This document shows, in pieces, positions 3,872 to 34,000 of a DNA stretch of 51,141 nucleotides (position 1 is its first letter; every line of letters begins with the position of its first letter). The position numbers were made by a program, and so were the translations under genes. The stretch spans positions 1 through 51,141 of the forward strand of contig CAMCZE010000001.1 of the NCBI GenBank assembly GCA_945885655.1, written 5' to 3'. The stretch comes from Bacteriovorax stolpii. GTDB lineage: Bacteria > Bdellovibrionota > Bacteriovoracia > Bacteriovoracales > Bacteriovoracaceae. A model generated the notes under the pieces. That model was not told where the DNA came from, searched no databases, and saw only the letters and a list, made by a program, of their open reading frames with translations.

Positions 3872-5071
3872 ATGAAAATTCTAGTTCTCGCTTCAGATAA
3901 TCCCTCTCCACCAATAAATGGAACAAGAATACGAAATTTTCATCTCTGGCCTATTCTTAAAGCTCAGGGGCATGAAGTGAAACTCCTTTGTCTTACGAAA
4001 AATCCTCAAGACCTAAATCATCACTCCGATGACAAAGAATTTTTTCTTTTTACACGGAAGAACATCTTTAAAAGAATTTATATGAGACTGCTACACTCCT
4101 ATCACGAGTGGCCGGTATCAGATGATTTAACAAGAAGAGTTCAATCTCTTGTTTCCGAATGGCAACCTGACATTATACATGCTGAAGAATTTCGAATGGG
4201 CCAATACATACCTCGTAAGAATACACTTTCAGCTCAAACTTTAACTTCAGTTTGCGCACACAATGTCGAAAGTCAGCTCATTAAAAAGACTTTGGCCGCC
4301 CCTTTTCCATATGCCATTAAGTTTTTTAATCGTATCTACCAAATCACTTTAAAAAGGGCCGAACGAAAAGTTTTTCATAATGTCGACCTACGACTTACTT
4401 ACTCTGAGGTCGATAAGAATATCTATGCTTCTCTTTATCCAAAACTTACCTGGGTAAGTTCATCCAATGGAGTTCCTCTCATTAATTTAAATGAAAGCGA
4501 CTTAAAAACTCTGTGCACAAATAACATTCTATTTTTGGGTTCTCTTAACTATTTACCGAACATCGAAGGTCTTTATTGGTTTTTGGATCATATCTATCCC
4601 AACGTTAAACAAAATTGCAAACTCACTGTAGCGGGTTCAAATCCTCCTGAAAAAGTGAAAATAAGACTTAAAACAGAAGATGTGGAATTGATCGATACCC
4701 CTCTTGAACTAGGCCCTGTTTATCTGGAAAATGGCCTCCTTATAGTGCCGTTACTTAATGGTTCCGGAACCCGTGGAAAAATTCTTGAATCATTGATGTA
4801 TGCCAGACCGGTGCTAACGACGAGTCTTGGAGTAGAAGGTTTGCAAATAAATGCTGGGCAAGGAATCATCGTTGGTGATGGAATTGAAGGATATACTTCT
4901 GCTCTCAAAGATTGGTTAAATCTTAATTCTCAAGAACGACAAAAAATGGCCATGGCAGGAAGAGATCTCATTTTGAAAAAATATACTTGGCATCATGTGG
5001 CCTCGGATCTCATTAAATATTGGGAGAAAGGAGTTATGTCGAAGAGGACTCTTCAGCAGACAAAAAATTAA
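3872..5071 (+). CDS. Glycosyltransferase family 4
   Basis: PSPPINGTRIR N-terminus, AHNVES, FLGSLNYLPNIEGL, GSGTRGKILESL...TTSLGVEGL (GT-B, GT4 EX7E-type motif). Confidence 0.85.
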   Translation: MKILVLASDNPSPPINGTRIRNFHLWPILKAQGHEVKLLCLTKNPQDLNHHSDDKEFFLFTRKNIFKRIYMRLLHSYHEWPVSDDLTRRVQSLVSEWQPDIIHAEEFRMGQYIPRKNTLSAQTLTSVCAHNVESQLIKKTLAAPFPYAIKFFNRIYQITLKRAERKVFHNVDLRLTYSEVDKNIYASLYPKLTWVSSSNGVPLINLNESDLKTLCTNNILFLGSLNYLPNIEGLYWFLDHIYPNVKQNCKLTVAGSNPPEKVKIRLKTEDVELIDTPLELGPVYLENGLLIVPLLNGSGTRGKILESLMYARPVLTTSLGVEGLQINAGQGIIVGDGIEGYTSALKDWLNLNSQERQKMAMAGRDLILKKYTWHHVASDLIKYWEKGVMSKRTLQQTKN

Positions 5072-6479
5072 GCATTTTTGCCTTCATCGTGGAAAGATTC
5101 TGTTTTAAATCTTTATGAGAATTACCGTTAAGCACTCTATTAAATTTTAACACCGAAGCCTCAATTTGCCAAAAGCCATCAAGTATTTCAACGTTTGTAG
5201 CAGAAGCTTCATCTTTGGGTAATGTATCCTGGACGTGCTGTTTTTGCAGACCTATTATGTGTTTATACAGTTTAGAATCAAATTTAATCTTAGGTATAAT
5301 CAATTGTTTTTTTTCTGCCATGAACTTTAAATGCAACCACCATTTAACATATTCTTTATAAGTCGAAGACATATTCGAATTCTCTTTTAAGATTTGTAAG
5401 ACAGGTAATGCTTCATAAACAACCGTCTCATAAATCTCAAATTCTTCGGAGTTCATTGGCCCTAACTCTCCACCTTTTAAAATTCTTATCGATAACTTTA
5501 AAATAACATCCGGAAGTTCTTGGCCTGATTGTTTAAAAAAGATGAGACAACTTTTATGGATCGCCGAAAAATCGCTTAAGGGAAGTTCCGAACCTCGTCC
5601 AATTATGATACTAGGGGTTGAAGCAATATCGGCCAAGGCCTTCAAATAAAGATTATCTGTCACGACAATGGCACAATGGCCAATAAGATAAAGCTGGCCT
5701 TTATTTTGACATTTAACGAAATTAACTTCTCCGGAATTTAAATCTTTGAAGTAACTTAAAATTTGGCTTTCACCCTCAGGGTCCATGCTAAAAAAAAGAG
5801 GCATGAGATGAGGATCATTATCAAATTTTTTATACAGCTCGGCCAAAAAACCAAAATCGGTGACATTTTCGTTTTCTTTCATGTCAGCATCAATAAGTAC
5901 TATTTGTCTTTTTCCGCTTTTTTTGAAAAGACTTTCCATTTTTAAATTAAATTCACGATCCAATTTTTCTTCAAAATGAGATTTAACAGGAAGCTCATAA
6001 TAAATACCTGCGATATCTTTGTATAAATAGAGAAAATGGAAATAATTTTCATGCTGATCAGGGACATTCATGAGTAACAAAGAAGAAAGATTTGAATACT
6101 CAATGGTGGGATCATCAGCTTTAGAATATGGCCCTGAAATCGTTTTATAGTTTAAAAAGCATGTATAGATTGTGCCTAAGAGATTTGAGGACAAGTTCAC
6201 AACTAAATCCCATTTTACGTCAATGAAGGGCCCTAAATAGTTCCTCATCTTTTCTTCTATTTCCTCATTACTTAGACCTATTGTAGTTGAGAAAAATACG
6301 TCAACATCTAACAGAAGTACCTTTTCAAAAACTTCTACTGTATGAAAAAGTTCATTGGCGGCAGAGACAACGATTGATATTTGAGCAGAAGGGTATTTTT
6401 TTTTAAGTAACGCCCCTACGGTCGCAGAATAGGCACTTCGATGAGGGGGGTCAATATTAATAATGAGAATTCTTTTCAT
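5034..6479 (-). CDS. GT9 (heptosyltransferase)-like protein, catalytic motifs degenerate
   Basis: MKRILII...LLKKKYPSAQISIVV, WDLVVNL and IVVTDN...IASTPSIII follow the GT9 layout, but the GD and DSGxxH motifs are missing. Confidence 0.5.
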   Translation of the reverse strand: MKRILIINIDPPHRSAYSATVGALLKKKYPSAQISIVVSAANELFHTVEVFEKVLLLDVDVFFSTTIGLSNEEIEEKMRNYLGPFIDVKWDLVVNLSSNLLGTIYTCFLNYKTISGPYSKADDPTIEYSNLSSLLLMNVPDQHENYFHFLYLYKDIAGIYYELPVKSHFEEKLDREFNLKMESLFKKSGKRQIVLIDADMKENENVTDFGFLAELYKKFDNDPHLMPLFFSMDPEGESQILSYFKDLNSGEVNFVKCQNKGQLYLIGHCAIVVTDNLYLKALADIASTPSIIIGRGSELPLSDFSAIHKSCLIFFKQSGQELPDVILKLSIRILKGGELGPMNSEEFEIYETVVYEALPVLQILKENSNMSSTYKEYVKWWLHLKFMAEKKQLIIPKIKFDSKLYKHIIGLQKQHVQDTLPKDEASATNVEILDGFWQIEASVLKFNRVLNGNSHKDLKQNLSTMKAKMLNFLSAEESSST

Positions 6480-7844: not shown

Positions 7845-9029
7845 TTAATTGATTTGCCAAAATTTCCTAAGACCATCTGGCCATCTCTCTAGATTTATCC
7901 CAAACTGAGACATCGTCGTAAAAATAATTCTTTCGTACCCAAAGCCGACACATCCCGTAGTGGCCTGCACCTGTGTTGATAATTTCATGTTAAAAGGTGC
8001 TGAAAAATGTTTTCCATGATTATTTAAAGATCCAACGGCCACATAATTTCCACTGATGGGATTTAAAATTTTTATTTCAACTTTCGATTGTTCTGCAAAC
8101 TGAAAAAACTGAAGTGATTTGATCGAATTAGCAAAAAATGGGTCACTTGCAGTCATAATCTTAGAATTAAGTTGTGCGAGTTCGAGGTAATCTTCAAACC
8201 ATTTCTGGCATTTCTCTAGACGGCCCGTAACATACTGTTTATCTCCAAAGAAAATAAACTCCCTCATCGAAAATTCATGTAATCGTTCAAGAGTCGTAAT
8301 ATTTTTCTCTTCATTTCGAAAAGCTTTTCCAAAAACAGTCAATGTCTTAAAGTCTTCTGGTGCTAAAACTTTGTTTTCGAAAAGCTGGTAACTATTAAGA
8401 CAAATTGCCGAGCGGCACATCCCTTTTGGTGAACAAAGATGTTCCTGAAAATCGATATTTTTATCTTTCATTTTATGGGAAAATTCAGAAATCGAGTCGA
8501 GATCACTTTTAAGAAGAGAAATGAAGTTTGCAAATTGAGGCGTTTTTTGAAAAAAATTAATTTTCTTAAGGGTCTCAATCGTTGTCACAATAGGAAGAAC
8601 AACTTCTTGCGCCTCAAACTCTTTTGAAAACTCAAATAACTTTTGATCTAAAACTCTATAAAGTTTTAGAAATTGACCTGAAAGTGCATAATGTCCTGGA
8701 GAAACCTCAACAAGATCCCCCCTTTTTAATAATTCAGGGTAAATGTCCCCATTATTAGGGAAGGTACGATTCGATTTATCAAGAAGAGTATGAACCATTT
8801 CTCCATCTCTGCTGGGTTTGGCCATATCAATGAGCTTTTCCAGTTTTTGATTCACATCAGAAAATTCTCCAGTCTCAGTTAACGTTATTTGGATGGTGCC
8901 TTTAACTTCATCTATGTGAAACGCCTTGATCTTCTCACTCAGAAATGGAAGGTTATTCTGCAAAGCTTCCTTAGAATGTTGCTCAATTTTATAAGGTACA
9001 TTCACTTCATATTTTTTTTCATTAGACAT
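7845..9029 (-). CDS. Class II aminoacyl-tRNA synthetase paralog (atypical/methanogen-type SerRS-like); putative amino acid:[carrier protein] ligase
   Basis: Motif 2 FRNE...ERLHEFSMREF, motif 3 TGCVGFGYER, SAICLNSY; Cys/Glu/Cys Zn-ligand pattern; ASDPFF and SLNNH motifs; SD GGGAG before ATG; ACP gene 2.3 kb away. Confidence 0.8.
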   Translation of the reverse strand: MSNEKKYEVNVPYKIEQHSKEALQNNLPFLSEKIKAFHIDEVKGTIQITLTETGEFSDVNQKLEKLIDMAKPSRDGEMVHTLLDKSNRTFPNNGDIYPELLKRGDLVEVSPGHYALSGQFLKLYRVLDQKLFEFSKEFEAQEVVLPIVTTIETLKKINFFQKTPQFANFISLLKSDLDSISEFSHKMKDKNIDFQEHLCSPKGMCRSAICLNSYQLFENKVLAPEDFKTLTVFGKAFRNEEKNITTLERLHEFSMREFIFFGDKQYVTGRLEKCQKWFEDYLELAQLNSKIMTASDPFFANSIKSLQFFQFAEQSKVEIKILNPISGNYVAVGSLNNHGKHFSAPFNMKLSTQVQATTGCVGFGYERIIFTTMSQFGINLERWPDGLRKFWQIN

Positions 9030-9116
9030 GGTTTAACTCCCGCAAAACACAATCTTCAACTATAATTATTATATAAATTATAACCTTTAAAAAGAATCTC
9101 TCAAAGAGCAATCAGC
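9030..9116. promoter_or_regulatory. Divergent promoter region between the aaRS-like gene and the dltD/B/X/C-like operon
   Basis: 87-bp AT-rich gap. TATAAT at 9061-9066 on +; TATAAT on - at 9068-9073 and 9077-9082; no clear -35. Confidence 0.4.
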
Positions 9117-10055
9117 ATGTATAAAGTCTTCCTTGTCATTATCTTTATCGTTTTGGGATTTACTTCATTTGCCATAAGAATGTTGTCTAAAAATCAGTTC
9201 CCTAACTATCTCTACATGGACTCATTAAATCTCGATCACCACGCCTTATCACAAAGTGGTCATGAGCAAAATAAACTTATTTTTCTAGGAAGCTCTGGAG
9301 TTGCCGGGAGTAATGTTCCTTTGTTTTCTACTGTCTCCGATTTTTTTAATATTCATCAGAAAAAATATGAGTCTTATAACCTTGCCACTCTGCAGGGAAC
9401 AATGCCTGAGGTTTTGGTTTATTTTAAACAATCTCTCAACTATTCACCAAGTGCTGTCGTCCTAGGTTTGTCACCTGACACACTTCCCAAATTTTCCGTT
9501 TCTCCAGTCTCGGCCATTAATTTATCTTTTATCCAAGAAGACTTAGACCCGGAACTTACAACTTTCATCAAAGAGGAGTCCCGAAAAAAACTCTACTTAA
9601 ACGAGTTAACAGAAAAATTCTGGCCCCACTATCCTCCCCCTTTTCAACTCATTAAGCTGAAGAGCGCCCTCTATGAACTACGCGAAAGTCTTTATGGACC
9701 TTTAAGTAACAAAAATTTTACTGGGGCCCTACAACATAAATTGACTATGCCTGATGCTAACCACTTACAAATAAAAATAGTTTTACAAATAGCAAAAACA
9801 TGTCAAAAAAACGGGATTCCTTTTTTTATTTATTTTGAGCCAATGTTTGGTGCAGAAAAAGTTTATGGTCAGAATTTGAAGAAATATCAAGATCGCTTAA
9901 AAGAAATTTTAACTCAGCACCAAGTCGTGTCATTTGATTATACCAATCTCATCCAAGAAAAATCTCTTTTTTCTGACTACATACATTTAAAACCTAAAGG
10001 GTATGAACGGCTCGCTATCAAACTGTCTCAAGATCTAGAAGGAAACATGCCATGA
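9117..10055 (+). CDS. DltD/AlgX-like SGNH-fold acyltransferase, N-terminal membrane anchor
   Basis: N-terminal TM; block I FLGSS, block II YNLATLQG, block V FSDYIHL (DxxH); 4-bp ATGA overlap with the MBOAT gene. Confidence 0.75.
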   Translation: MYKVFLVIIFIVLGFTSFAIRMLSKNQFPNYLYMDSLNLDHHALSQSGHEQNKLIFLGSSGVAGSNVPLFSTVSDFFNIHQKKYESYNLATLQGTMPEVLVYFKQSLNYSPSAVVLGLSPDTLPKFSVSPVSAINLSFIQEDLDPELTTFIKEESRKKLYLNELTEKFWPHYPPPFQLIKLKSALYELRESLYGPLSNKNFTGALQHKLTMPDANHLQIKIVLQIAKTCQKNGIPFFIYFEPMFGAEKVYGQNLKKYQDRLKEILTQHQVVSFDYTNLIQEKSLFSDYIHLKPKGYERLAIKLSQDLEGNMP

Positions 10056-11266
10056 TCTCCTTCCAAAGCCATACTTATTACATATTTTCACTCATTGCCT
10101 TTTGTCTTTTTCAACTCATTCGAAAAAAAGATAAAAGCACACTCTTGTTTTTTATCAATCTTCTTTTTATTGGACTTTTTTTTTATTTTAGCAAAAAAAA
10201 TCTTCTCATTCTTTTAACCTACGTAAGTTTAAGTTACCTATCTATCTTTTTCAGTAGCAAACTCACATCAAAAAAAGTCTTCATTTTTTTTCAAATAACA
10301 CTCTCCCTGATCTTTTTATCTTTTTATAAGTATGACATTCTGAGAGATCCAATTTTGAGTCTTTTCCCAAATCTCCAGAATCTCACAGGGGTTATTGGTT
10401 TTGCAGGATTATCTTTCCTCAGTTTTAGGTCTCTGAGTGTTATGTTTGATACTCTCTATGGGTCTAGAAAAAAACCTCTTAATTTTATTCACTACACTAA
10501 TTTTCTCCTTTTTTTTCCTTGTTATCTTTCAGGCCCTTTGGATCGTTATGACCGTTTTGTAGGTGATCTAGAGAATACAGACACTCTAGACTCTCAAAGA
10601 ATTTATCAAGGATTATCCAGAATCGTTTTGGGTGCATTTAAAAAGGGAATACTTGCTGACATGCTCTATGACTTCTCATCAGATTCCATGAGTTTGATCG
10701 ACATGCAATCGATGTCAGTATCAAAAATTCTTCTATCTCATTACGTTTATGTTTTTGTCCTTTATTTTGACTTCTCTGGTTATAGCGACATTGCCATTGG
10801 TATCAGTAACCTTTTAGGGGTAAAAACTCCCGAGAATTTCAATAAACCTTACTTACAAAGGAATTTGCAAAACTTTTGGAATTCATGGCACATCAGTTTC
10901 CTTCACTGGTTAAGAGACTATATCTATATCCCCCTACAAAAAAAGATGATCCAGAAAGGTTTTAAAAACTTCGTTGCCATTGCTTGTTTTTCTTATTTTA
11001 CTGTTTTTATCATTGCCGGAATATGGCATGGAGGAACTCTACAATATTTTTTATATGGAGTTACTCATGGATTGGGACTGACTGTTTATCTTGTCTATAA
11101 AAAAATATTAGAAAAGAAACTCACACCTAGTCTTTTAAAATGGTACCGAAATAGTTCTCTTATAAAAGTTATGGCAACACTATTCACGCTTCATTACTTT
11201 TACCTAAGTTTGTTTTTTTTCATCCACAAGATGGAGCTTTTTTCTATTATCTGGAATAAATTATGA
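10052..11266 (+). CDS. MBOAT family acyltransferase, DltB/AlgI-like
   Basis: Multi-TM; GLSFLSFR, FFPCYLSGPLDRY, YFDFSGYSDIAIG, ENFNKPY, FWNSWHISF, GIWHG (catalytic His). Confidence 0.92.
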   Translation: MISFQSHTYYIFSLIAFCLFQLIRKKDKSTLLFFINLLFIGLFFYFSKKNLLILLTYVSLSYLSIFFSSKLTSKKVFIFFQITLSLIFLSFYKYDILRDPILSLFPNLQNLTGVIGFAGLSFLSFRSLSVMFDTLYGSRKKPLNFIHYTNFLLFFPCYLSGPLDRYDRFVGDLENTDTLDSQRIYQGLSRIVLGAFKKGILADMLYDFSSDSMSLIDMQSMSVSKILLSHYVYVFVLYFDFSGYSDIAIGISNLLGVKTPENFNKPYLQRNLQNFWNSWHISFLHWLRDYIYIPLQKKMIQKGFKNFVAIACFSYFTVFIIAGIWHGGTLQYFLYGVTHGLGLTVYLVYKKILEKKLTPSLLKWYRNSSLIKVMATLFTLHYFYLSLFFFIHKMELFSIIWNKL

Positions 11267-11370
11267 ATACTAAATACCAAGAGATGATAAAATTTGTAAT
11301 ATTACTCATTATGATCATGATCCTGATTTTTGTCGGAGATCATCAACATGGTTTTCAGTATGAATTTTAA
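11263..11370 (+). CDS. DltX-like 35-aa membrane micropeptide, not in the ORF track: MNTKYQEMIKFVILLIMIMILIFVGDHQHGFQYEF
   Basis: Translated by hand. ATG overlaps the MBOAT stop (ATGA); one hydrophobic helix; C-terminal FQYEF resembles the DltX FxYxxF motif; it fills the gap up to the ACP SD (AAGGA). Confidence 0.75.
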   Translation: MNTKYQEMIKFVILLIMIMILIFVGDHQHGFQYEF

Positions 11371-11379
11371 AGGATACAT

Positions 11380-11610
11380 ATGGATAAAAATCTAAAGATT
11401 ATTCAAGACACTTTTGCAACAGTATTTGGTGTTTCTCCATCAGATATCACCCTTGAAACCAGTATTGAAAACTTTAATGACTGGGATTCCATGAGACACC
11501 TAGAAATCATCACAAGTATTGAGGCCGCTTTCGGCATTCAATTCAATATGGGTGAAATCATCCATTTGAACTCTGTGGAAAAGATCCTTCAAACAATCCC
11601 CAGAACCTAA
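11380..11610 (+). CDS. Acyl/aminoacyl carrier protein (DltC-like role)
   Basis: 76 aa, acidic; WDSM phosphopantetheine site (Ser37); IEAAFGIQF helix; SD AAGGA. Confidence 0.9.
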   Translation: MDKNLKIIQDTFATVFGVSPSDITLETSIENFNDWDSMRHLEIITSIEAAFGIQFNMGEIIHLNSVEKILQTIPRT

Positions 11611-11801: not shown

Positions 11802-12827
11802 ATGAGCTTGAAAGTTCTCTTCACCACATATTCAACTGCTTTTCAAAATCCAGGAGGAGGGGAAATAGTTTTATTAAAAACTCGTCAGGCCCTTCAGGAA
11901 AATGGAATAACTGTTGACCTATTTGATCCGTGGAACTCTAAGATTAAGAACTACGATATCGTACATGACTTTTCCTTACATAGCTGGAGGCAGTGGAGTG
12001 CTTTTAAGGCCTATGGCCCCAAACTAGCTGTCACACCTGTGGCCTGGCCTCATGTAAAGTTTCCTTATCCTCAAAAAGAAAAAATTAAACACTTTCTCCT
12101 AAAAACACTTAAACGAGACCATCCAGAATCAAGCTTAAGTGAGGCGCTAAAATTGCCAGATATATTTTTACCTACTACCGAATTAGAGTCTCAACGTCTT
12201 AAGAATCGTTACGCGGTCATGAAAAACTCTAGATGTAAAATCATCCCAAATGGAATTTCCCTCCCCCCCATAAATGATGATGCTCATAACTCATTTGTTG
12301 AGGCACATAAAATAAATGACTATCTTTTATATGTAGGGAGAATCACAAAGATAAAAAACATTGAGTTGATCATTGAGGCCGCAAAAAAAACGAACAAAGA
12401 TCTTTTTATCATTGGCGATGTAAATAAAGATGAACAAGATTATCTTACAAAGTTAAAAACTATCTCCAATCATCACATTCACTTCATTCCCTCCATGCCA
12501 CATAATTCAAAACTGCTCTTAGACGCATATCGAGGGGCCAAGGCCCTTATTGTTGCGAGTTTTTTTGAAACTTGTTCTTTAGTCGGCATGGAAGCAGGAG
12601 CTTTAGGGACACCTGTCATCATGACAGAAGAAGGGGCGACAAAAGAAATCTACAAAGATTATGTGACATACATAAATCCTCATCAAGAAACATCTTTGAT
12701 ACAGGCCATCGAAAAGAATTGGAACTCAAAACCTAGTGACCATTTAAAAAACCATGTCCTTAAGAATTATACATGGGATAAAATAGCTAAGAACTTAACT
12801 TCGGCCTATGAGGAAATTTTGAAGTGA
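11802..12827 (+). CDS. Glycosyltransferase family 4
   Basis: AFQNPGGGE, IIPNG, LYVGRITKIKN, SFFETCSLVGMEA. Confidence 0.88.
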   Translation: MSLKVLFTTYSTAFQNPGGGEIVLLKTRQALQENGITVDLFDPWNSKIKNYDIVHDFSLHSWRQWSAFKAYGPKLAVTPVAWPHVKFPYPQKEKIKHFLLKTLKRDHPESSLSEALKLPDIFLPTTELESQRLKNRYAVMKNSRCKIIPNGISLPPINDDAHNSFVEAHKINDYLLYVGRITKIKNIELIIEAAKKTNKDLFIIGDVNKDEQDYLTKLKTISNHHIHFIPSMPHNSKLLLDAYRGAKALIVASFFETCSLVGMEAGALGTPVIMTEEGATKEIYKDYVTYINPHQETSLIQAIEKNWNSKPSDHLKNHVLKNYTWDKIAKNLTSAYEEILK

Positions 12828-14122
12828 CGTTAAAACATGCCCATACACATATTTCTGCGATTTTAATTTCTACAACGATGCGTTCGGTTAGTCTTCTCAT
12901 GTCCGCCAATATCTTCAACGCAGGCATCGGTCTTATTTTATCTGTACTGACTCTACGTTATATCTCTCCGGATATCCTCGGTGTGATTTATCCCCTTATA
13001 TCAATATCTATGATCATTAACCAATTCGGAGATTGGGGAACATCCAACTCATTCATCAAACTTGCCAGCACCCACTATTCAGTAAATAGAGATAAGGCCT
13101 GGTCCTTCTTTCATGCGGCCTTAAAAATCAAACTTTATCTTTGTTTAGCAGTCTTACTCATTTGTGTCCCACTTTCTTCCCAGATCTCACGTTGGACATT
13201 TGCACATACAAAACATTCTGATCTTGTCACTCTCATCATCTTTGTAACTTCACTACAAATACTTTCATCTTTCACGACATCCACTTTACAAATTGAAGGG
13301 CGTTTTAAGACTCTCTCTTGGGTTAAAATTCTGCCCAACCTTCTTAAACTCACGTTTCTTGCCTTGATCATCTTTTTAGGACATATAACACTTATAAATG
13401 TTCTGATCGGGTTTTTGATAGTTCCTGTTATGTCATTTCTTATTTCAATCCCCTTCACTGACTTAAAAAAAATATTCAATCATGATGCTAAGAAAGAAGA
13501 TTTTCATGAACTCATTAAGGTCAGTCGCTGGATCGCATTATCCGCCATAGCCAATGCTTTCTTAAATCAGATGGACATTCTTATGATGACATCGATGGGG
13601 GGAAATGAAGAACTTGTAAGACTTTTAGGTGGGCAAAGGTTGGCCGGAATTTTTCCCATACTCTCGATGAGCCTTGTAACGGTGCTTCTTCCGAAAGTTT
13701 CAAGCATGGTTTCAAAGGCCGAACTTAATTTTTATTACCGAAAAACATTTCTTATCACAACTGTCTTTTGTTTATTTCTTTTATGTTTTCTTCCTCTATC
13801 AAAATGGATCATACCCTTTATTCTTGGATCAAAATATACATCATCCATTGACGTGTTTAATCTCCTAATGATTGCAAACCTTCTTGGTATTATGATTACT
13901 CCACTTAGTCTTGTGTTGTATAAGTTAAATAAAGAACCCATCTTTGTTTTGATGAATGTTGCCCAACTTATCATAACAATCATCGGAAACTGGATACTCA
14001 TACCTATCTATGGTGCCTATGCTTCTGCCATTATGGTCATTTTATGCAAAATAATCGCGTTTCTTTTCGTTTATTATCAACTCTGGAAAGAAGGCATTCT
14101 TTTTTATCACCATGAAAAATAA
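12824..14122 (+). CDS. Wzx-type oligosaccharide flippase (MOP superfamily)
   Basis: Many TM segments; FGDWGT, QMDILMM and LIPIYGAYASA motifs; GTG start overlapping the upstream stop. Confidence 0.8.
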   Translation: MTLKHAHTHISAILISTTMRSVSLLMSANIFNAGIGLILSVLTLRYISPDILGVIYPLISISMIINQFGDWGTSNSFIKLASTHYSVNRDKAWSFFHAALKIKLYLCLAVLLICVPLSSQISRWTFAHTKHSDLVTLIIFVTSLQILSSFTTSTLQIEGRFKTLSWVKILPNLLKLTFLALIIFLGHITLINVLIGFLIVPVMSFLISIPFTDLKKIFNHDAKKEDFHELIKVSRWIALSAIANAFLNQMDILMMTSMGGNEELVRLLGGQRLAGIFPILSMSLVTVLLPKVSSMVSKAELNFYYRKTFLITTVFCLFLLCFLPLSKWIIPFILGSKYTSSIDVFNLLMIANLLGIMITPLSLVLYKLNKEPIFVLMNVAQLIITIIGNWILIPIYGAYASAIMVILCKIIAFLFVYYQLWKEGILFYHHEK

Positions 14123-15302
14123 AGCAAAGATCCTTATAAGTGGCTCCTATGGAACAGGTAACGTTGGTGATGAGATCATTCTTCATTGCATATTAGATGA
14201 ATTAAAAGATTTCAATCTAACAGTTCTTTCTCAAGGTCCGGAATATACCAAAAAAAACTTTTCTGGAATTAGAGTTGTTGCTCAAACACCAAGTTGGGAA
14301 ATAAAACGAATCATCAAAGATATCGTGTTTTTTAACGTTAAACAGCTTAAAGGACGTTTTCTTTTTCTTAAAGAACTAGTTCGTGCAGACTACTTTTTTT
14401 TAGGGGGAGGAGGATTACTGGCCGAAATGGTACCAAGAGTTTTAAGGTACTATTGCCACCAGATCGTGTTGGCGCATTTTTTCCGGTGTAAAGTTGTTCT
14501 ATTAACCGTTGGAGTAGGCCCACTAAAAACAATACGAGGCAAGGACTTATTATCAAAGGTGATTAATAGAATTCCTTTTTTTATTTCAGTCCGGGATGAA
14601 TACTCTCAAAACAATTTAAAACAAATAGGTGTTACAAAAAAAATCTATACCGTGCCCGATCCTGCCTTTCTATTTAAATCAGAAAACAAATCATGTGCCA
14701 ATACAGTGGTTGTAAACTTTTATCGCACCTTTGACGATGCGACTTTATGGCCAGCTATGTCCTTTCGAAAAGATATTTTGATGAACTCCCTGGAGAAAAT
14801 CATTGAACATATCATCAATGAGCTTAAGTATAATGTTATTATTTTACCTTTTGGCTCTTCAAACGATAAAGATTTTGCACAAGAGACTTTACTTAAGATT
14901 GTAACAAGAAATCCATCACTCGCTCCTTCAATCTCCCTACACAATGGAATAAACTATTTAGACATTGCTGAGGTTCTTGCCTCGGCAAGATGGTCTATCA
15001 CAATGAGGTTTCATGCAGGTTTAATTTCTTTGGCCCATTTAAAACCTTCTGTGTGTATTGATCAGCAGTTTAAATCAGAACGTATGTTAAAAGAAATGAA
15101 CCTGGAAGAACTTCTTATCTGTTTGCCTGATGGATACCATAAAGAAGGTGATCACAATGTTGAATTTATGGAGCTCAAAAACAAAGTAACAGAAATGGAG
15201 AAAAACTATGATGATATTCAGCATAGAATCTCGCTCTACCAAAAAAAATCGAAAATAGAACTTACAGAATTTTGGAATACTTTAAGAAAAATGATAAAAT
15301 AG
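14112..15302 (+). CDS. Polysaccharide pyruvyltransferase (CsaB/WcaK-like)
   Basis: GSYGTGNVGDE, LGGGGLL, ISVRDEYS, VPDPAF, TMRFHA. Confidence 0.88.
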   Translation: MKNKAKILISGSYGTGNVGDEIILHCILDELKDFNLTVLSQGPEYTKKNFSGIRVVAQTPSWEIKRIIKDIVFFNVKQLKGRFLFLKELVRADYFFLGGGGLLAEMVPRVLRYYCHQIVLAHFFRCKVVLLTVGVGPLKTIRGKDLLSKVINRIPFFISVRDEYSQNNLKQIGVTKKIYTVPDPAFLFKSENKSCANTVVVNFYRTFDDATLWPAMSFRKDILMNSLEKIIEHIINELKYNVIILPFGSSNDKDFAQETLLKIVTRNPSLAPSISLHNGINYLDIAEVLASARWSITMRFHAGLISLAHLKPSVCIDQQFKSERMLKEMNLEELLICLPDGYHKEGDHNVEFMELKNKVTEMEKNYDDIQHRISLYQKKSKIELTEFWNTLRKMIK

Positions 15303-15309
15303 GGGCTTT

Positions 15310-16152
15310 ATGGATACAACTTGGCAACAAGTTTTAAAAGATGAAGGCATTACAAAGATTGAATGTCCCTTTTCTCTAGAAACAATTAAAAAATGGAATC
15401 AGATACTGGACCCCCATTTTAAAAAAATAGATTTTGAAGATCGATCTTATGCAACTATCGAAGACTTATTTGACCTAGGTATTTTTCAAGATTTTTTCTC
15501 CCAGGAAATGCGAATGATCCTAAGAGATATTATGCCTGACCCTACTATTCTTTGCCTACACGCCTATGAAATCAAAGGACAAAATGATAAAAATCATATC
15601 TTCTCCGAAGCCTTTGATGGTTGGCATAGAGATATCGCAGAATTGCCTGGGCTTCAGGTAAATGCTCCTAACTTCATAAGCCTTTTCATTTATCTTTCAG
15701 AGGTTAACGCCGGTGATGGAGAATTTGAAATCATCAAAAGAAGTTTTACAGGTCCTGCCATTAACGGTGAAAAAAGTCTTAAAGTGATTGGACAAGCTGG
15801 AACTACTTTTATTTGGAACCGGGCCCTCTTACATCGCGCGACCCCTAATACTTCTCCTACACGTCGTCGTGTGCTCAAACTTAGTATTCAACATAATTAT
15901 TTTCAAAACGAACACATTCATAGTCCAGAATTTATTCGTATAAGAAATTTGGTCAAAGACCCCTATCTTAGGTTCATCACAGGTGAAAAACATGCAACTT
16001 CGCCTGTGGCCCACCAAGCTCCCGTTACAGGACATTCCTTAATGAAGGTGATTCCTTTGATTTCAAACTCTCAAATTAATATTCGTTTTACTGAATTTCT
16101 GAAAGGACTGTGGTGGTTTATGAGAAAAAACAAAAGACCTTTTGGACCTTAA
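15310..16152 (+). CDS. Fe(II)/2-oxoglutarate dioxygenase, PhyH-like
   Basis: GWHRD (HxD), FIYLSEV...G, GQAGTTFIWN...LLHRA...N.S...RRVL facial-triad layout; SD AGGGG. Confidence 0.75.
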   Translation: MDTTWQQVLKDEGITKIECPFSLETIKKWNQILDPHFKKIDFEDRSYATIEDLFDLGIFQDFFSQEMRMILRDIMPDPTILCLHAYEIKGQNDKNHIFSEAFDGWHRDIAELPGLQVNAPNFISLFIYLSEVNAGDGEFEIIKRSFTGPAINGEKSLKVIGQAGTTFIWNRALLHRATPNTSPTRRRVLKLSIQHNYFQNEHIHSPEFIRIRNLVKDPYLRFITGEKHATSPVAHQAPVTGHSLMKVIPLISNSQINIRFTEFLKGLWWFMRKNKRPFGP

Positions 16153-19629: not shown

Positions 19630-20679
19630 TTATCTGGCCAATATTTTATTTCGTAAACTTAAAAATGGTTTTTCAATAGCACGATAACTTAACCAAGAAA
19701 GGATACAAGTCAGTGCAAAAAAAACAAAAACTTTAAATATCCAAGGACCTGTCAGCTCTGCTTTAATCAAGACTCGCATTAAAAGATTATTCCAAAGATA
19801 CATGCCAAAGGACCACTGAGCTATTCTGAAGGCCGGTGAATATAAATATGCATGTATTTTCAATGATTCGAAATATATTAAAAGACAACTAAACCCAACA
19901 GCGATAAGACTAAAACTGTATACTGTGGCGGCACCTAAAAGATATGGTCCATTAAAATAAAAGTTTAACATTAAAAGGAATAGACCAAATATCGCAACAG
20001 CTAATTTTAGATTTTTGCTCCATTGTCCCCAACTAGATTGTGTCTTTGCCAGAAAAACACCGAGCGAAAGACCATCAAGATGGGTATGAGTCGGAAAATC
20101 AATTAAATATGCAACCTGCTCCCTACTCAGAAAATTTAAACTTCCCGAACTCCATTCGACATATCTGCAAATGAAACTGACAGCGATAGGAATAAGCCAA
20201 ACATATGTTCTTTTTCCTAGTCCTAAGACAAAAACGAGAATGGGTAAAAATAAATAAAACTGCTCTTCAATGCAAAGTGACCAAGATTGAACAAAGTCTT
20301 TCAAATCGAAATAATTCTGAGCAAAAAAAAGATAACTAAAATTCCAACCAATAAAGGGATATCCTAAAAAGGGTTTAATAAATAAATAGACAAAAAGAAC
20401 AAAAAAATAAAGAGGGAAAGTTCGTAACCATCTTTTGATCCAAAAAATCTTTAAATTTTTGAATACACTTAAAGACAGTTCTGTATTAAATACCTGTCCT
20501 GCGATTAAAAAACCAGAGAGAACAAAAAAAAGATCTACACCTATCCAGCCATATTCAAAGATGTTACGAAGAAAAAAAACCTCATTTCCTAAGATTTCTA
20601 CAGAATGTAATAGCATCACGAAAACAATTGCAAACATTCGTAAAAGATCGAGGCCATGATTTCTATGGTTTATTAACAT
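19630..20679 (-). CDS. Acyltransferase family 3 (OafA-like O-acyltransferase)
   Basis: GLDLLR, GVDLFFVLSGFLI, KRWLRTFPLY, SWSLCIEEQFYL, SFGMYLW. Confidence 0.9.
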   Translation of the reverse strand: MLINHRNHGLDLLRMFAIVFVMLLHSVEILGNEVFFLRNIFEYGWIGVDLFFVLSGFLIAGQVFNTELSLSVFKNLKIFWIKRWLRTFPLYFFVLFVYLFIKPFLGYPFIGWNFSYLFFAQNYFDLKDFVQSWSLCIEEQFYLFLPILVFVLGLGKRTYVWLIPIAVSFICRYVEWSSGSLNFLSREQVAYLIDFPTHTHLDGLSLGVFLAKTQSSWGQWSKNLKLAVAIFGLFLLMLNFYFNGPYLLGAATVYSFSLIAVGFSCLLIYFESLKIHAYLYSPAFRIAQWSFGMYLWNNLLMRVLIKAELTGPWIFKVFVFFALTCILSWLSYRAIEKPFLSLRNKILAR

Positions 20680-22488: not shown

Positions 22489-22800
22489 ATGTTTCCTGCT
22501 CATATTCAATATTTCATGTCAACATACTTGGTTTTTGGCATTTTCCCATTAGATAAGGTTCTGCATCTTTTAGTAGGAATGTTTATCACTATCGTTATGA
22601 GACTTTTCAAATTTAGAATGCGCATGATCTTTTTAATTATCGCTGTAGTAGCATTAATAAAAGAGGCCATCGATTCTAGAATTATGACCAACACAATAGA
22701 AGAGAACATCTTAGATGCCATAGCAACTTTTAGTTACCCACTCTTACTTCATCTTGCCATAAAGGTAAAAAGTGCTCAAAGAAAAAAAATGATCAACTAA
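22489..22800 (+). CDS. Small membrane protein, VanZ-like
   Basis: DKVLH...KE...DAIAT pattern in a small hydrophobic protein. Confidence 0.5.
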   Translation: MFPAHIQYFMSTYLVFGIFPLDKVLHLLVGMFITIVMRLFKFRMRMIFLIIAVVALIKEAIDSRIMTNTIEENILDAIATFSYPLLLHLAIKVKSAQRKKMIN

Positions 22801-23899
22801 TTTTACGTTTAAGATCTATCCACCTTTTTTCAAAAAAGTGATAACTCATTCCTCCTAAAAATCCCGCAGTAAGTATGATGAATAAATAAAAAACAACTTG
22901 TACAATATCTTTATTCCATCCTGATAAAACTAAATCTGAGAAGAAGGGCCGAAAAAACTTTTGCAAAGGATTATGAATGAGATAAATACCATAACTATAA
23001 AGACCAATTGATCTCATGGCTCTTAATTCTAATATAGCTAGGATACTCTTCCCTCCACTCTCTGCTGGATGATGATGCCACCAAAGAACAAATCCCACGA
23101 GGCTTGTATAAAACAAGGACAAACTGGAATAGCCCATGCCTGCCCAGAGATAAAATGGAAGAACTGTTGATCCTGCATAAAAAATGATCGAAAGTATAAA
23201 GGTCACCATAAAAAACAAATGGCCAGTTGTTCGTTCACGAAATAAGAAAGATAACAAGACCCCCATCATAATCGTATCGAACCTTGTAATACTCATGACA
23301 TGAATTGCAACGGAATTCACTCCATAATAGGCAAGAAGTATACGGAGAAGTGGACACACTAAAACAATGGTCCAGGCCACCCTTTTCAGCCTAAAAACAT
23401 CAAAAAAGTACACGCATAATGACCAAAAGAGATAAAACTGTTCTTCAACACTAAGAGACCAACTCAGGTCAATCAAACCATGCTGAAAGTGTCCCCTCCA
23501 AGCAATGTAGTAGTTAGAAAGAAATGTCCAATATGGCCAAGCCGGCACGTCACGAAATTTTGATAATAAACTATGATTTAAATTCGGTAATATAAAAAAA
23601 GCAATAAAAAGAACGACAAAATACAAAGGGATGATTCTAAGAGCACGGGAAAGGTAAAATTTCTTAAAAAAAGAAGGATGCCCTTTGATTCTTAAGAGCA
23701 CTTCATTTATCAGGTAACCTGAGATGATAAAAAAAAGATCGACCCCACTATTAAAAAACTGAGAGAGATCATAAAGACTGCCTGCTTCTGTTAAAAAATG
23801 GGAATGATGGATGACGACAAAAATGATGGCCAGGGCCCTTAGGCCATCTAGCCCTTTAATATATGTCGATTTTTCTATCGGAATCTCAATCTTTCTCAC
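22793..23899 (-). CDS. Acyltransferase family 3 (OafA-like O-acyltransferase)
   Basis: GLDGLRALAI, GVDLFFIISGYLI, RALRIIPLY, SWSLSVEEQFYL, SYGIYLIH. Start moved to GTG at 23899 (SD AAGGATAGG) from the ORF-track 24001. Confidence 0.88.
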   Translation of the reverse strand: MRKIEIPIEKSTYIKGLDGLRALAIIFVVIHHSHFLTEAGSLYDLSQFFNSGVDLFFIISGYLINEVLLRIKGHPSFFKKFYLSRALRIIPLYFVVLFIAFFILPNLNHSLLSKFRDVPAWPYWTFLSNYYIAWRGHFQHGLIDLSWSLSVEEQFYLFWSLCVYFFDVFRLKRVAWTIVLVCPLLRILLAYYGVNSVAIHVMSITRFDTIMMGVLLSFLFRERTTGHLFFMVTFILSIIFYAGSTVLPFYLWAGMGYSSLSLFYTSLVGFVLWWHHHPAESGGKSILAILELRAMRSIGLYSYGIYLIHNPLQKFFRPFFSDLVLSGWNKDIVQVVFYLFIILTAGFLGGMSYHFFEKRWIDLKRKIS

Positions 23900-23932
23900 A
23901 CCTATCCTTTGAGGTTTGTTAAGATAGTCTTT

Positions 23933-25459
23933 ATGAATAATGTACAGACTAAATCTAACATATACTTTGAAAGTATTCTTATTGTTACATACGCTCTTCA
24001 TTATTTGTTAAACTTTCTATCTCATCCGTATGCCGCATTTTCAATATTGGCCATTACCGTATTAACATTTTCCTACGTTCTTCTGATGTCCCCATCTAAA
24101 GTCGTCATCGCTCTCATTTGTTATATTTTCATTGAAGGTCAAGGTAGAATATTATGGAACTATCATTCTTTTTTTCGAATCGCATTTGATCTCTACTGCT
24201 TTATTTTAGTCATTCGAATATTCAAAACGAAGAAAAAAACCTTGAGTGCCAAAATCGTCACGATGCCAATTATTGTGCTTTTTATTCTACATACACTTTG
24301 GATAGGACTTACCATCTTTAACCCGATGGGTGCGGCACCCATTTATTCATTTGCAGCAATCAAGTACTATACTATTCCTTTTTTACTTTTTTTTGCTTTG
24401 AGCTTAATCGATGAACTTAAGGATATTTCATATTTAAAGAGATTGAGCTTTTTTGTTGTGATAATGACATTCCTGACCTGTATTCTTTGTATTTATCAAA
24501 TGGTGCAAGGTGAAAATTCTATTTATGGTATGAGTGCAAATTACTACTCACTATTTAATAAACACAAAAACTTCACGGGTTACTTCTTTAGACCATGGGG
24601 AACTTCGCATGATGCTGGAGCTATGGCAGTTTTTCTTAATCTGTCTGTTGGTTTCATATTTATTTTCTTCTGGAAAAAAACAAAAACATGGAACATTGTC
24701 TCTCTTCTTTTAGTCATCACATTGAGTTGGTACACTCTTTTTATTTGTCAGGTAAGATCTGCATCCATCAAACATACAGCGATTATCTTAAGTATTATGG
24801 GAATCTTTTTCATTCGAGGATCAAAAAGAATACAAAAGGTACTCCTTGCAAGTAGCATAACTCTCGTCTTTTTATTCGCAGGTGTCTATTTTCAAAAAGA
24901 ATCCGTTTTTAAGAAGTTCACTGAAAACACGAATTTTGCACTTACTCGGTACATGAGTTTATTTGAACCAAACTTTAAACATAATCGAGCTTCTACTGAT
25001 ATCGTTTTAATGAGAATGAAAACACAAGTCAATTGGCCATTTGGATATGGACCCGGTATGGTAACCAATTTCCTACCTGGAATAACCACGAGAAGAAATG
25101 AGATGATTGGGGTAAATCTTGATCATCTCTGGAGTGGAGACAACTTTTTTTTATTTTCATTTCTTGAGTTAGGCCTTGGTGCTGTCTTATATATTTTACT
25201 TTTTCTAGCGATACCTTTGACACTAGGAGTACGTTGGTTAAAACTAGACCGCCAAAAGTACCCTACCCAATCAAGTCTCATCCTTATCGTTATATCCATA
25301 CAAGTCATAACCATTGTTGGGAATTGGGGTGCTGTTGGTTTAGCTTTTAATCCTGAATCATTTTTTTATTGGTTATGGTCTGCTATTGGAATTCAAAACT
25401 CATCTTCACAATACTTCGTACAATCTATTCCGCATCAAAACGAGGAGCATGTCCAATGA
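23933..25459 (+). CDS. Wzy-like polymerase / O-antigen ligase-type membrane protein
   Basis: Many TM segments; FRPWGTS, QVRSA, PFGYGPG and DNFF...LELGLG pattern of Wzy_C-like proteins. Start moved to ATG 23933 from TTG 23909. Confidence 0.65.
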   Translation: MNNVQTKSNIYFESILIVTYALHYLLNFLSHPYAAFSILAITVLTFSYVLLMSPSKVVIALICYIFIEGQGRILWNYHSFFRIAFDLYCFILVIRIFKTKKKTLSAKIVTMPIIVLFILHTLWIGLTIFNPMGAAPIYSFAAIKYYTIPFLLFFALSLIDELKDISYLKRLSFFVVIMTFLTCILCIYQMVQGENSIYGMSANYYSLFNKHKNFTGYFFRPWGTSHDAGAMAVFLNLSVGFIFIFFWKKTKTWNIVSLLLVITLSWYTLFICQVRSASIKHTAIILSIMGIFFIRGSKRIQKVLLASSITLVFLFAGVYFQKESVFKKFTENTNFALTRYMSLFEPNFKHNRASTDIVLMRMKTQVNWPFGYGPGMVTNFLPGITTRRNEMIGVNLDHLWSGDNFFLFSFLELGLGAVLYILLFLAIPLTLGVRWLKLDRQKYPTQSSLILIVISIQVITIVGNWGAVGLAFNPESFFYWLWSAIGIQNSSSQYFVQSIPHQNEEHVQ

Positions 25460-31073: not shown

Positions 31074-34000
31074 TTAACTGGCCTTGTCTTTTGAGTGGGA
31101 TTTTCTTTGATAAAGCTGATCGATAAGTTGACTAATACCAGATTGACCTTTTGCGTTTAAAACGTTCTGTTTTAAATCCGAACCTTCGTTCCTTGAGACC
31201 GCTTCGGGCCCTTTTGAAGCCTTCAGTTGGGGCATTCCATTAATTTCAGAACTTCCACTAGCATCCCTTGCTTGTAAGGAAGGAACTTTCTCATCAACTG
31301 ACAGTGCAGAAGAAGGCATTTTCTCCAATGATGAATTTCCCTCTGGTGGTGGAACCTCATTTTTAATTTTTGAAGATGACCTTGTTGTCTCTTGTTCCTG
31401 AGGTCGCCCTTTTATATCCTTTTCTTTTTTCTTCTCGTTTGCAAGAAGTTCTTCTGAGAGCAATGCTTTCTTTTTTTTCTCAACATCGTCTTTATCTAAT
31501 ATATCTTCATGAGAATTCTTGTTTTTTATTGAACCTACATCTTCAGGTTTTTCCGTTGATGGCGATAAATTTTTCTTTTTATCATTTTTATAAAGATCTT
31601 CCTCTGCACTGTTCTTAGGCCGTTCAGTGTTATTCTTTTTCTTTTGAAGAAGATCTATGACGTCAGCATTTTCCGTTTTATGTTCTGTTTTCTTGAGATT
31701 ATCAACGACGTCATTTTCAGTTACTTCTTTTTTCTTCTCGTTCAGTTTTTTAGACTCATGTTCTTGTTTTACGCGTGAAGGACTTACATCTAACAGATCC
31801 TCTGTATCCTTACCCTCTAACGAATTGCCCTTCTGCAAATTTTCATTTTTTCCGGAATTATTTTCTTTTCCTGTGTAATCGTGCCCATCGTTTCCAGACT
31901 GAGACCCTGTGAGATCATCTAAAAAATCTTCATCATTAACTTCAATTTTTTTTGTTTTTGATTCTGAAGTTGTAGTCGTTTCTTTAATGTTATCAAAATC
32001 ATCTTGCTCTTCATGGGCACTTTTTTTCTTTTTTTCTAGATTGGGTCGTGTCGTCTCGGAAGACTTTTCTTCTAGAGCACTCTCGATGATATTCTTATTA
32101 TTTTTGGCCTTTGCCAAAACATCGTCTTTTTTTATTTCATTTGGTGATGCTTCAGACTTCTTATTCTGGGCATTGGCCGCTTTATCACCCGATTTATAAT
32201 GTGTTGAGATATTCTCTGTCTTATGTTTGAGATCTAGTTTTTCATTTGATGCTACTTTTTCTTCTTTAATGGCACCTTGTAGATTTTTCGGTCCTTTAGA
32301 AGACAAAGGTTCTATTTCTTTGTCTTGATTCTTTTTATCATCATTTTGTTTTTTTAAATCCGCCTTCTCCTTAGACTCTTTCTCGTTAGCATTCTCTTGA
32401 GGATTATGACTATTGTAATGAGTTTTTATTTTTTCTGTTTTTTTATCTAAATCTAACTGACTACCTTCATTCACATCAGAAGTTGAATGAGACAAATTTT
32501 TCTGTTCTTTATTCTGTGACGAATTCTCTCCATTTTTCTTATCTTTAGGTGGTGCGGACTCATCATACGTATTATGCGCGGAATAATGGGACTTTAATTT
32601 TTCTGTCTGCTTTTCCTGAGCTAATAAATCTCCCTCGTGCAGCTTGTCTGTAGGCCGAGATTTCTTATCAAGAGATTCATCATTTTTTTGTTCTTTCGCT
32701 TCACCTGTATACTGGCCATTAATTTTTTCTGTCTTTTTTTTCTGCTCTAAAGGGTCATCTTTTTTTACATTTTCAGTTAATGCTTTTTTATCGTTTTGCT
32801 CACCAGTATTTAAATTTTTTGTACTTTCACTATTTTTTTTCTCTGCAGCTTTTTTTGCCTCTTCACTTTCGCTTTTGCCTTTATAAAATGCCTCTACTTC
32901 CTGATTACCCACATCTTGTGAAAGTAAATCCGCATCCTTTAATTTTTCTGAGGCCACACCATCTTGATTCGTTGATGTCTTCTCAGATTCCCCTACCTTA
33001 CCTTTCAAAGGACTCGAATCTTTTGAAACTTCCCCTTTCTGAGAGAGTTTTCCATCAGAAATATTTTGATCCCCTGGTTTCAGATCTAAAGATAATTTTT
33101 TATCATCAATTGATGACTTTGATCCTTCTCCACTTAAAGCTTTATTTTCAATATTCTCAGTCTTGCCATGCCCTTCAAGCCTATCTGCATTAAACCCATC
33201 TTTTTCCAATGTGTTTTTTTCAACAACATCCTTATCCTTCTTAAACAGCATTTCTTTGTCAAAACTCTTAACGATGATATCTTCTTTCGTTTCTGCATAC
33301 ATCGAATTTTTTGCTACATTAAGGAGCTTTGCTTTAAGATCCAGCCGGCTCACTCGCTGCTGCTTATCTTCATAATAAAGCTCAAACTCCCATCCAGATA
33401 TTAACCACCGGTTCTCTTTCCAAACAAATTCCGGCTTTTGATCGCCCTTAAAATACCAGAAACCTGGCCCGTCCAGAATCATGCTTTTAATTTCGGCCTT
33501 CAATTCAAACTTCCAGACTCCTCGCAGATTTGCATGTTCGACCCACGTTGCGGCATATGGGCTTGGCCCCATAAGTTTGATCATCCATTTATTCAGGATT
33601 TTTTTACAATCATTTTCATGGGTGATAAGCCAAATATCTTCTGGAGAATCGAGGGGCTCAGTCCAGTTAACCTTTAAACCGTCTTCAAGCTTTTTTTTCT
33701 GTAAGACCGCTGCGTCTTTATTTTTACTTAACTTATCCGTTGTTTCCTTACCATCAATTTTTTTCAACTGAGCATTGATGGATTTCATCAAAAACTCAAT
33801 CTTATACCTTAGTGCCCTTACGTTCGTATTAACTTCAATAATATCCAGGATGCCCAGTTTCGCGATCGATTTATCAAATTCACGATTTCGAGAAAAGTTT
33901 ATCACTGCAATTTTTAATACGAAATTATTCGACAACTTCTTATGCCATTTAATCAAAGACGCTATCTGTATCAGATCATTTTTTGTCGTCAAACTACAGA

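Follow-up and report, generated by a model that had tools for sequence, protein, structure and literature searches.

Within a 51,141-nucleotide stretch of Bacteriovorax stolpii DNA (assembly GCA_945885655.1, contig CAMCZE010000001.1; the whole stretch is called the window below), five adjacent genes form a cassette that echoes the Dlt machine with which Gram-positive bacteria D-alanylate teichoic acids, and its presumed loader is a relative of seryl-tRNA synthetase (SerRS). The other four genes encode a DltD-like SGNH protein, an MBOAT acyltransferase, a small membrane peptide and an acyl carrier protein (ACP). The cassette is real and conserved, and it is a new variation on the Dlt design. 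Judging from the sequences, we are highly confident that the synthetase paralog would charge the cassette ACP for the MBOAT relay. The full reading, in which a Dlt-type relay would place a plain L-amino acid on the glycan of the surrounding locus, we consider probable. The argument is built on genes, folds, conserved residues, co-occurrence and a natural swap of the loader, all of which we observed.

The synthetase paralog and its proposed relay partners

The paralog, which we refer to as the ligase, matches tRNA-synt_2b in Pfam (PF00587, E 5e-10). With a 114-sequence ligase profile, the amino acid:[carrier protein] ligase Bll0957 scored 243 bits, against 206 and 142 bits for type-2 SerRS. The ligase also shares the motif MRE with Bll0957, where SerRS has RIE. 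Among ligase homologs, the residues C210 (264/266), E/D257 (265/266) and C360 (264/266) are conserved; we take C210, E257 and C360 to be zinc ligands, and this triad presumably binds the amino group. The arginines of motifs 2 and 3 are kept too: R238 is invariant (266/266), and R249 and R367 are conserved, as is E240. In the structure model (pLDDT 89.9) a catalytic core at approximately residues 76–394 follows an N-terminal domain of about 70 aa, and residues 94–394 superimpose on Bll0957 with a TM-score of 0.89 by target (2.9 Å, Z 30.1). An earlier sequence-only reading of this DNA had taken the paralog for a ligase of this type, and the profile that favours Bll0957, the MRE motif, the zinc triad and the fold all agree with it.

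Gly362 of the ligase occupies the position of an Ala in Bll0957. We assume that this Ala restricts Bll0957 to glycine, and that the Arg with which SerRS reads serine corresponds to Met255 here. Because of Gly362 and Met255, L-Ala is our first guess for the substrate and L-Ser the second.

The ligase belongs to a large family, for which we counted 170 clusters at the 50% identity level (E up to 1e-30). In 7 of the 176 homologs examined, the ligase is fused to an ACP of the WDSxxH type, which Pfam confirms for P0065 and L113. P0144 and P0156 have ligase fusions to a BtrH-like domain and a GNAT domain.

The sequence-only reading had allowed for the paralog being the genome's sole SerRS, and this is ruled out by a separate canonical SerRS on contig C34 (543 bits); the remaining PF00587 matches in the host genome are ThrRS, GlyRS and HisRS. 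It had also noted the absence of an AMP-binding (ANL) gene, and we found none on the window contig. Of the three AMP-binding enzymes in the assembled host genome (2.9 Mb, 85% complete), two are acetate--CoA ligases and the third is FadD-like. The best match to the DltA family (TIGR01734) in that 85% complete genome reached 63 bits against a cut-off of 560, and there was none in the cassette, so we rejected a hidden DltA as the loader in this assembly.

The MBOAT protein matches PF03062 (E 2e-24) and scores 242 bits with TIGR04091, below the cut-off of 375, and its PDB sequence matches are to DltB only. Its predicted catalytic His326 is invariant (17/17 aligned), and it ends without a fused Tyr motif (no terminal FxYxxF). 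In a quick tree with long branches it falls outside both the DltB clade and the FIYFxF clade. The SGNH protein, which has one N-terminal hydrophobic helix, has sub-threshold GDSL matches only in Pfam (E 0.04) and just 16.6 bits with TIGR04092; in a Foldseek search with its model, DltD structures took the first four ranks (E 7e-7 to 4e-6) and GDSL hydrolases followed narrowly. G58, S60, D287 and H290 are invariant in 14/14 aligned neighbours, and Ser60, Asp287 and His290 are predicted to be catalytic. The ACP matches PP-binding (PF00550, E 6e-8), with Ser37 as the predicted phosphopantetheine site, and is at best 25% identical to DltC over 40 aa.

We found no family match for the peptide in Pfam or NCBIfam. 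The Tyr predicted to shuttle the acyl group (Tyr33) is invariant in 14/14 peptides, although these were chosen by motif and position, so the conservation is partly built in. A sign of selection on the peptide that is independent of that choice is that the C-terminus GFQYEF is identical in six genomes with synonymous changes at 5/6 codons.

From the Dlt mechanism, a route can be proposed. The ligase would activate an amino acid with ATP at the zinc site and form aminoacyl-S-ACP, as homology, the conserved residues and the ACP fusions suggest. The cargo would be an L-amino acid, with alanine and serine as the likeliest candidates. MBOAT His326 would shift the acyl group to Tyr33 of the peptide, and Ser60 of the SGNH protein would then accept it and esterify the acceptor outside the inner membrane. 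The acceptor would be an envelope polymer, and the position of the cassette suggests that it is probably the locus polysaccharide.

The five reading frames, the gap between the divergent genes and the motifs GSS, DYIH, GIWHG and WDSM were all found where the sequence-only reading had placed them (Table 1). ATGA overlaps join SGNH to MBOAT and MBOAT to the peptide gene, and the 9 bp between the peptide and ACP genes contain AGGA. The ACP gene lies 2.35 kb from the ligase gene. The GC content of the cassette (0.32–0.36) is like that of the polysaccharide locus (0.35) and unlike that of the flanks (0.39). In the gap, a promoter-like site has 11/12 consensus matches. With a looser threshold we found one such site where shuffled sequence gave 1.3, so we treat it as a consensus match only.

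Table 1. Cassette genes and adjacent features, in window coordinates.
Feature	Position	Strand	Description
Ligase-like gene	7845..9029	-	394 aa; class II synthetase paralog of the type-2 SerRS lineage
Divergent gap between ligase and SGNH genes	9030-9116		87 bp
Promoter-like TTGAGA-16-TATAAT	9077..9104	-	sigma-70-like consensus, facing ligase gene
SGNH gene	9117..10055	+	312 aa, DltD-like
MBOAT gene	10052..11266	+	404 aa, DltB-length
Membrane peptide gene	11263..11370	+	35 aa, single transmembrane segment, DltX-like, C-terminus GFQYEF
ACP gene	11380..11610	+	76 aa, WDSMxH type
GT4, Wzx-type flippase, polysaccharide pyruvyl-transferase-like and PhyH genes	11802..16152	+	by Pfam

Recurrence of the cassette and swap of its loader

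The best evidence for the ligase in the loader slot is a natural loader swap in a related genome, G066 (99% complete). Its MBOAT is sister to the window clade (SH-aLRT 97, quick tree) and is accompanied by an ACP, a peptide with the C-terminus FQYNL and an SGNH protein that shares 26% identity with that of the window. In place of the ligase, for which the profile has no match in the G066 genome, there is an AMP-binding (ANL) enzyme that is closest to acyl-CoA ligases and not of the amino-acid adenylation type. The cargo may differ. The G066 cassette (L141:5303-10225) also has an unannotated 324-aa gene between the ACP and ANL genes and an RraA/HMG-aldolase-like gene downstream. A polysaccharide locus of G190 (L148:2912-8355) contains FkbH, ACP and MaoC-like genes, with a short MBOAT and an SGNH-like gene close by, and this FkbH set is a possible third loader type.

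The ligase profile matches 15 of the 238 genomes of the class. The GFQYEF cassette is present in six of them: G000 (the window genome) and five others of its family, G396, G440, G450, G505 and G507, whose genes are 31–56% identical to the window's. The five genes point the same way in G505 and G507, where they form one operon, with the ligase after the ACP, inside a homologous polysaccharide locus. G418 combines ligase, ACP and MBOAT genes with a possible peptide and an SGNH-like gene that is atypical; in G402 the ligase and ACP are fused and a PatA-type MBOAT lies 15 kb off; and the G531 locus ends at a contig end. Because the set recurs in other genomes and the last six residues of the peptide are identical in six genomes, we believe that the grouping of the five genes is more than chance.

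Short-form ligases occur in 6 of the 15 genomes, and we inspected the contexts of three of these: those of G190 and G074 belong to a biosynthetic cluster, and that of G511 to an ACP-dehydrogenase-like cluster. Among 11 short ligases of the phylum, one is linked to an MBOAT. A conserved phylum cluster (L025-L031, L033-L035) contains an AMP-binding enzyme, two ACP-like genes, a short 290-aa ligase, a reductase-like gene and an ABC exporter; it looks like an undescribed small-molecule pathway. From a single-protein contig scan we rejected L010, in an mraY/murD region, as a false match; the other match of the scan is a true relative.

From 231 confirmed metagenome stretches we took the best 80, which gave 79 loci; L037, which duplicates the window at 99%, was set aside to leave 78. 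An MBOAT gene lies within 6 kb of the ligase in 23/78 loci, in 14 of the 30 loci of at least 8 kb and in 17 of the 46 clusters formed at 60% identity, counts in which kin are not independent. Using our own profile, we found an ACP within 6 kb in 47/78. AMP-binding genes are absent from all but one of the 23 MBOAT-linked loci, and the one present encodes an acetyl-CoA synthetase. As a background, 122 MBOAT matches in 151 genomes of the family correspond to about 0.3% of 13-kb segments, although this control is lenient because glycan loci are enriched. The linkage changes state 9 times on a 56-row ligase tree (again a quick tree), and linked MBOATs fall in several clades.

All five parts are present in L044 (apparently the same as G440), L051, L065, L094, L098, L101, L105, L110 and L115, and in L041 and L077/L083 the ligase and ACP accompany a PatA-type MBOAT bearing a fused motif. 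The expectation that homologs would keep such company was thus confirmed, since ACP, MBOAT, SGNH and Tyr peptide genes are found with ligases and without DltA.

Some of these loci have further features. A sulfotransferase-like gene stands beside the ACP and ligase in L094, L098, L105, L110 and L112, and in L094, L098, L101 and L110 the MBOAT is extended by 170 aa at its N-terminus. In L051 (8235-11952), L065 and L067 the cassette, with a DltX-like peptide ending FIYEGF, lies behind a large FG-GAP repeat protein. A Cys-rich protein is encoded between ligase and ACP in L041 (3770-4462) and L052 (3837-4601), with a weak CxxCxxCC match in L041.

Possible acceptors and cargo, and competing explanations

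Several observations weigh against our reading, and we set them out here with the alternatives that they touch. A DltA could be unassembled because the genome is only 85% complete, and the host match for a phosphopantetheinyl transferase is below its cut-off. The peptide motif FxYxF (FQYEF) is one residue shorter than the FXYXXF of DltX; the six-residue form is present in distant cassettes (FIYEGF, FRYVGF, FVYANF), and the DltX of two plasmid operons ends FIYNEF. Our own profiles found no SGNH or peptide in the MBOAT-linked loci L053/L054/L059/L109 and L080. Plasmid biosynthetic clusters without MBOAT also contain ligases of this family, and L038 and L039, close relatives of the ligase, have no MBOAT in the DNA seen. 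With these two among its closest relatives, we conclude that the family as a whole is not tied to MBOAT relays.

The acceptor is the weaker part of the sequence-only reading, which is otherwise supported in the ligase type and the co-occurrence. It had placed the cassette in a Wzx/Wzy glycan locus and named that glycan as the acceptor. By Pfam, the window has a Wzx-type flippase (E 6e-12), a WecA/MraY-type transferase and GT2/GT4 glycosyltransferases, and the supposed Wzy (23909-25459), which has no Pfam match, is an assignment by inference only. The locus has five same-genus copies, and we compared four of them (L157-L160): they share the backbone, and they contain no match to the ligase, SGNH or ACP genes or to the GT4-to-PhyH genes of Table 1, which together with the cassette form a block missing from all four. 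One of these copies, G476, carries a longer, unrelated MBOAT where the locus ends.

The same relay could serve another acceptor (lipid A, a membrane lipid, peptidoglycan or a periplasmic glucan), with the cassette merely landing in variable envelope loci, and we consider this unlikely, though the likeliest of the alternatives. Polysaccharide genes flank the cassette in just three of the six close genomes; in G440 and G450 it adjoins MscS and M14 peptidase genes together with RimK-like ones, and in G396, where one side was seen, the neighbouring genes are OmpA- and MCP-like. L051, L065 and L067 adjoin the FG-GAP protein and an MCP, and no polysaccharide genes are beside the G066 cassette in the DNA seen. 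However, G000, G505 and G507 carry the cassette at differing positions of the same polysaccharide locus, and the glycan locus could sit elsewhere in the remaining genomes. Among the distant MBOAT-linked clusters with loci of at least 8 kb, Pfam, used because our local glycosyltransferase profiles are insensitive, detected glycan genes in 5/10 (L053 group, L080, L094, L110, L115), and they were not seen in the DNA of the other five (L044, L047, L051, L077/L083, L098). With glycan genes in only half of these clusters, a glycan acceptor is likely here and is neither general nor proven.

Other genes of the locus deserve mention. Two acyltransferase-3 genes (19630-20679 and 22793-24001) suggest that the glycan may bear further acyl groups through a second route. 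A 481-aa protein without a Pfam match (5034-6479) is kept in all four same-genus copies, and a 1048-aa protein (31074-34220) has a long, low-complexity, charged C-terminal region.

It is also conceivable, and to us quite improbable, that the cargo is something other than a plain amino acid: the aminoacyl-ACP might be N-acetylated, sulfated or oxidised, or the ligase might load a hydroxy acid or other small acid. GNAT genes adjoin the ligase in L047, the L053 group and L115, sulfotransferase genes are present in L094, L098 and L105, the sister relay of G066 is fed by an acyl-CoA-ligase-like enzyme, and a PhyH gene lies within the strain-specific block. However, no tailoring gene is inside the cassette of the window or the five close genomes, and the zinc triad, with its presumed hold on the amino group, is intact.

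We give very little credence to a retained tRNA role, in which the ligase would charge tRNA, or take its amino acid from aminoacyl-tRNA, through the N-terminal domain, with the ACP loaded in another way. Single-sequence NCBIfam scores are tied, at 125.7 bits for the carrier-protein ligase family NF005479 (cut-off 357) and 124.9 bits for a type-2 SerRS family (cut-off 611), and a second type-2 family gave 83.7 bits (cut-off 490), so that all three scores lie far below their cut-offs. Type-2 SerRS also tops the structure searches, where the M. barkeri enzyme aligns with residues 76–394 at Z 32.0 (rmsd 2.7 Å, 314 aligned), against the Z of 30.1 for Bll0957. Residues 1–70 are modelled as a confident beta-alpha-beta-beta-alpha domain that is absent from the solved carrier-protein ligases; we found no usable sequence match to it in Atlas, a PDB profile search (coiled-coil noise only) or Pfam. 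The SerRS tRNA-binding domain PF18490 is found in 17% of the members of one Atlas look-alike cluster. However, 0/114 members of our profile match PF18490, a canonical SerRS is encoded elsewhere in the genome, ligase-ACP fusions exist, and the domain, at about 70 aa, is shorter than its M. barkeri SerRS counterpart of about 165 aa, where the match starts at residue 165.

Least probable of all is that the ligase and ACP serve a cytoplasmic pathway such as NDP-sugar aminoacylation and are neighbours only by chance of an MBOAT-peptide-SGNH set that uses acyl-CoA. In its favour, the ligase is divergent in the window, and in L038, L039 and L111 a ligase and an ACP without MBOAT adjoin GT2, FkbH or formyltransferase genes. 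Against it, the ACP gene of G000, G396, G440 and G450 is coupled with the MBOAT operon and not with the ligase, the five genes are one operon in G505 and G507, and in the ligase and MBOAT trees alike the MBOAT link appears on several branches.

Comparison with known systems

In Vibrio cholerae, AlmEFG carries out carrier-protein-based glycylation of lipid A in a Gram-negative envelope, which is similar to what we propose here. AlmEFG differs in having an ANL loader and a cytoplasmic-face acyltransferase, and no MBOAT, peptide or SGNH protein. The known amino acid:[carrier protein] ligases (Bll0957; NF005479/PRK07080) resemble the cassette enzyme in fold, zinc triad, MRE motif and a nearby carrier protein. 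The cassette enzyme differs in its extra 70-aa N-terminal domain, in having Gly362 for Ala, in belonging to a separate clade and in scoring far below the NF005479 cut-off, and its neighbours are MBOAT and SGNH genes, whereas those of Bll0957 are an acyl-CoA dehydrogenase and DUF1839. Type-2 (methanogen-type) SerRS provides the closest fold for residues 76–394 and has the zinc triad, but it has about 500 aa, against 394 here, and the cassette ligase is without PF18490 or RIE.

The Dlt route, as described in passages of PMC12148441, runs from DltC to the DltX Tyr (FXYXXF) and then to the DltD Ser. The cassette is like Dlt in its DltB-length MBOAT without a fused shuttle, its free single-span Tyr peptide, its DltD-like SGNH protein and its dedicated carrier. 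It is unlike Dlt in having a class II synthetase paralog in place of the ANL enzyme DltA, a cargo predicted to be an L- and not a D-amino acid, a WDSMxH carrier, the FxYxF motif, an MBOAT outside the DltB clade and a Gram-negative host. The O-acetyltransferases PatAB and AlgIJ also combine MBOAT and SGNH proteins in Gram-negative bacteria to acylate an exported polymer through a Tyr shuttle, but they use acetyl-CoA and have the Tyr motif fused to MBOAT. The same passages of that 2025 paper (PMC12148441) describe non-Dlt MBOAT-SGNH pathways, PatAB and AlgIJ among them, as working without a carrier protein or a DltX-like microprotein. The cassette has a carrier protein and a putative DltX-like peptide, in a Gram-negative genome.

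Our literature search, which excluded subscription papers and supplements, notably the Schultz 2023 gene-cluster survey, found no description of the ligase combined with a Dlt-like relay. To our knowledge the products of SerRS-like carrier-protein ligases are poorly defined, and the cassette offers a concrete, testable output for them. Its five small genes suit in vitro reconstitution, and the G066 cassette is a natural loader-exchange control. More broadly, we see an even chance that carrier-fed MBOAT relays with a DltX-like peptide are modular and widespread beyond Firmicute Dlt, with an interchangeable loader (a SerRS-derived ligase, an ANL enzyme, perhaps FkbH), and that a large, unnamed branch of ligases of about 390 aa was recruited several times to ester-link plain or modified L-amino acids to Gram-negative surface glycans without tRNA. 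If our reading is true then, by analogy with Dlt, aminoacyl esters on surface glycans would alter their charge and could affect phage binding or sensitivity to antimicrobial peptides.

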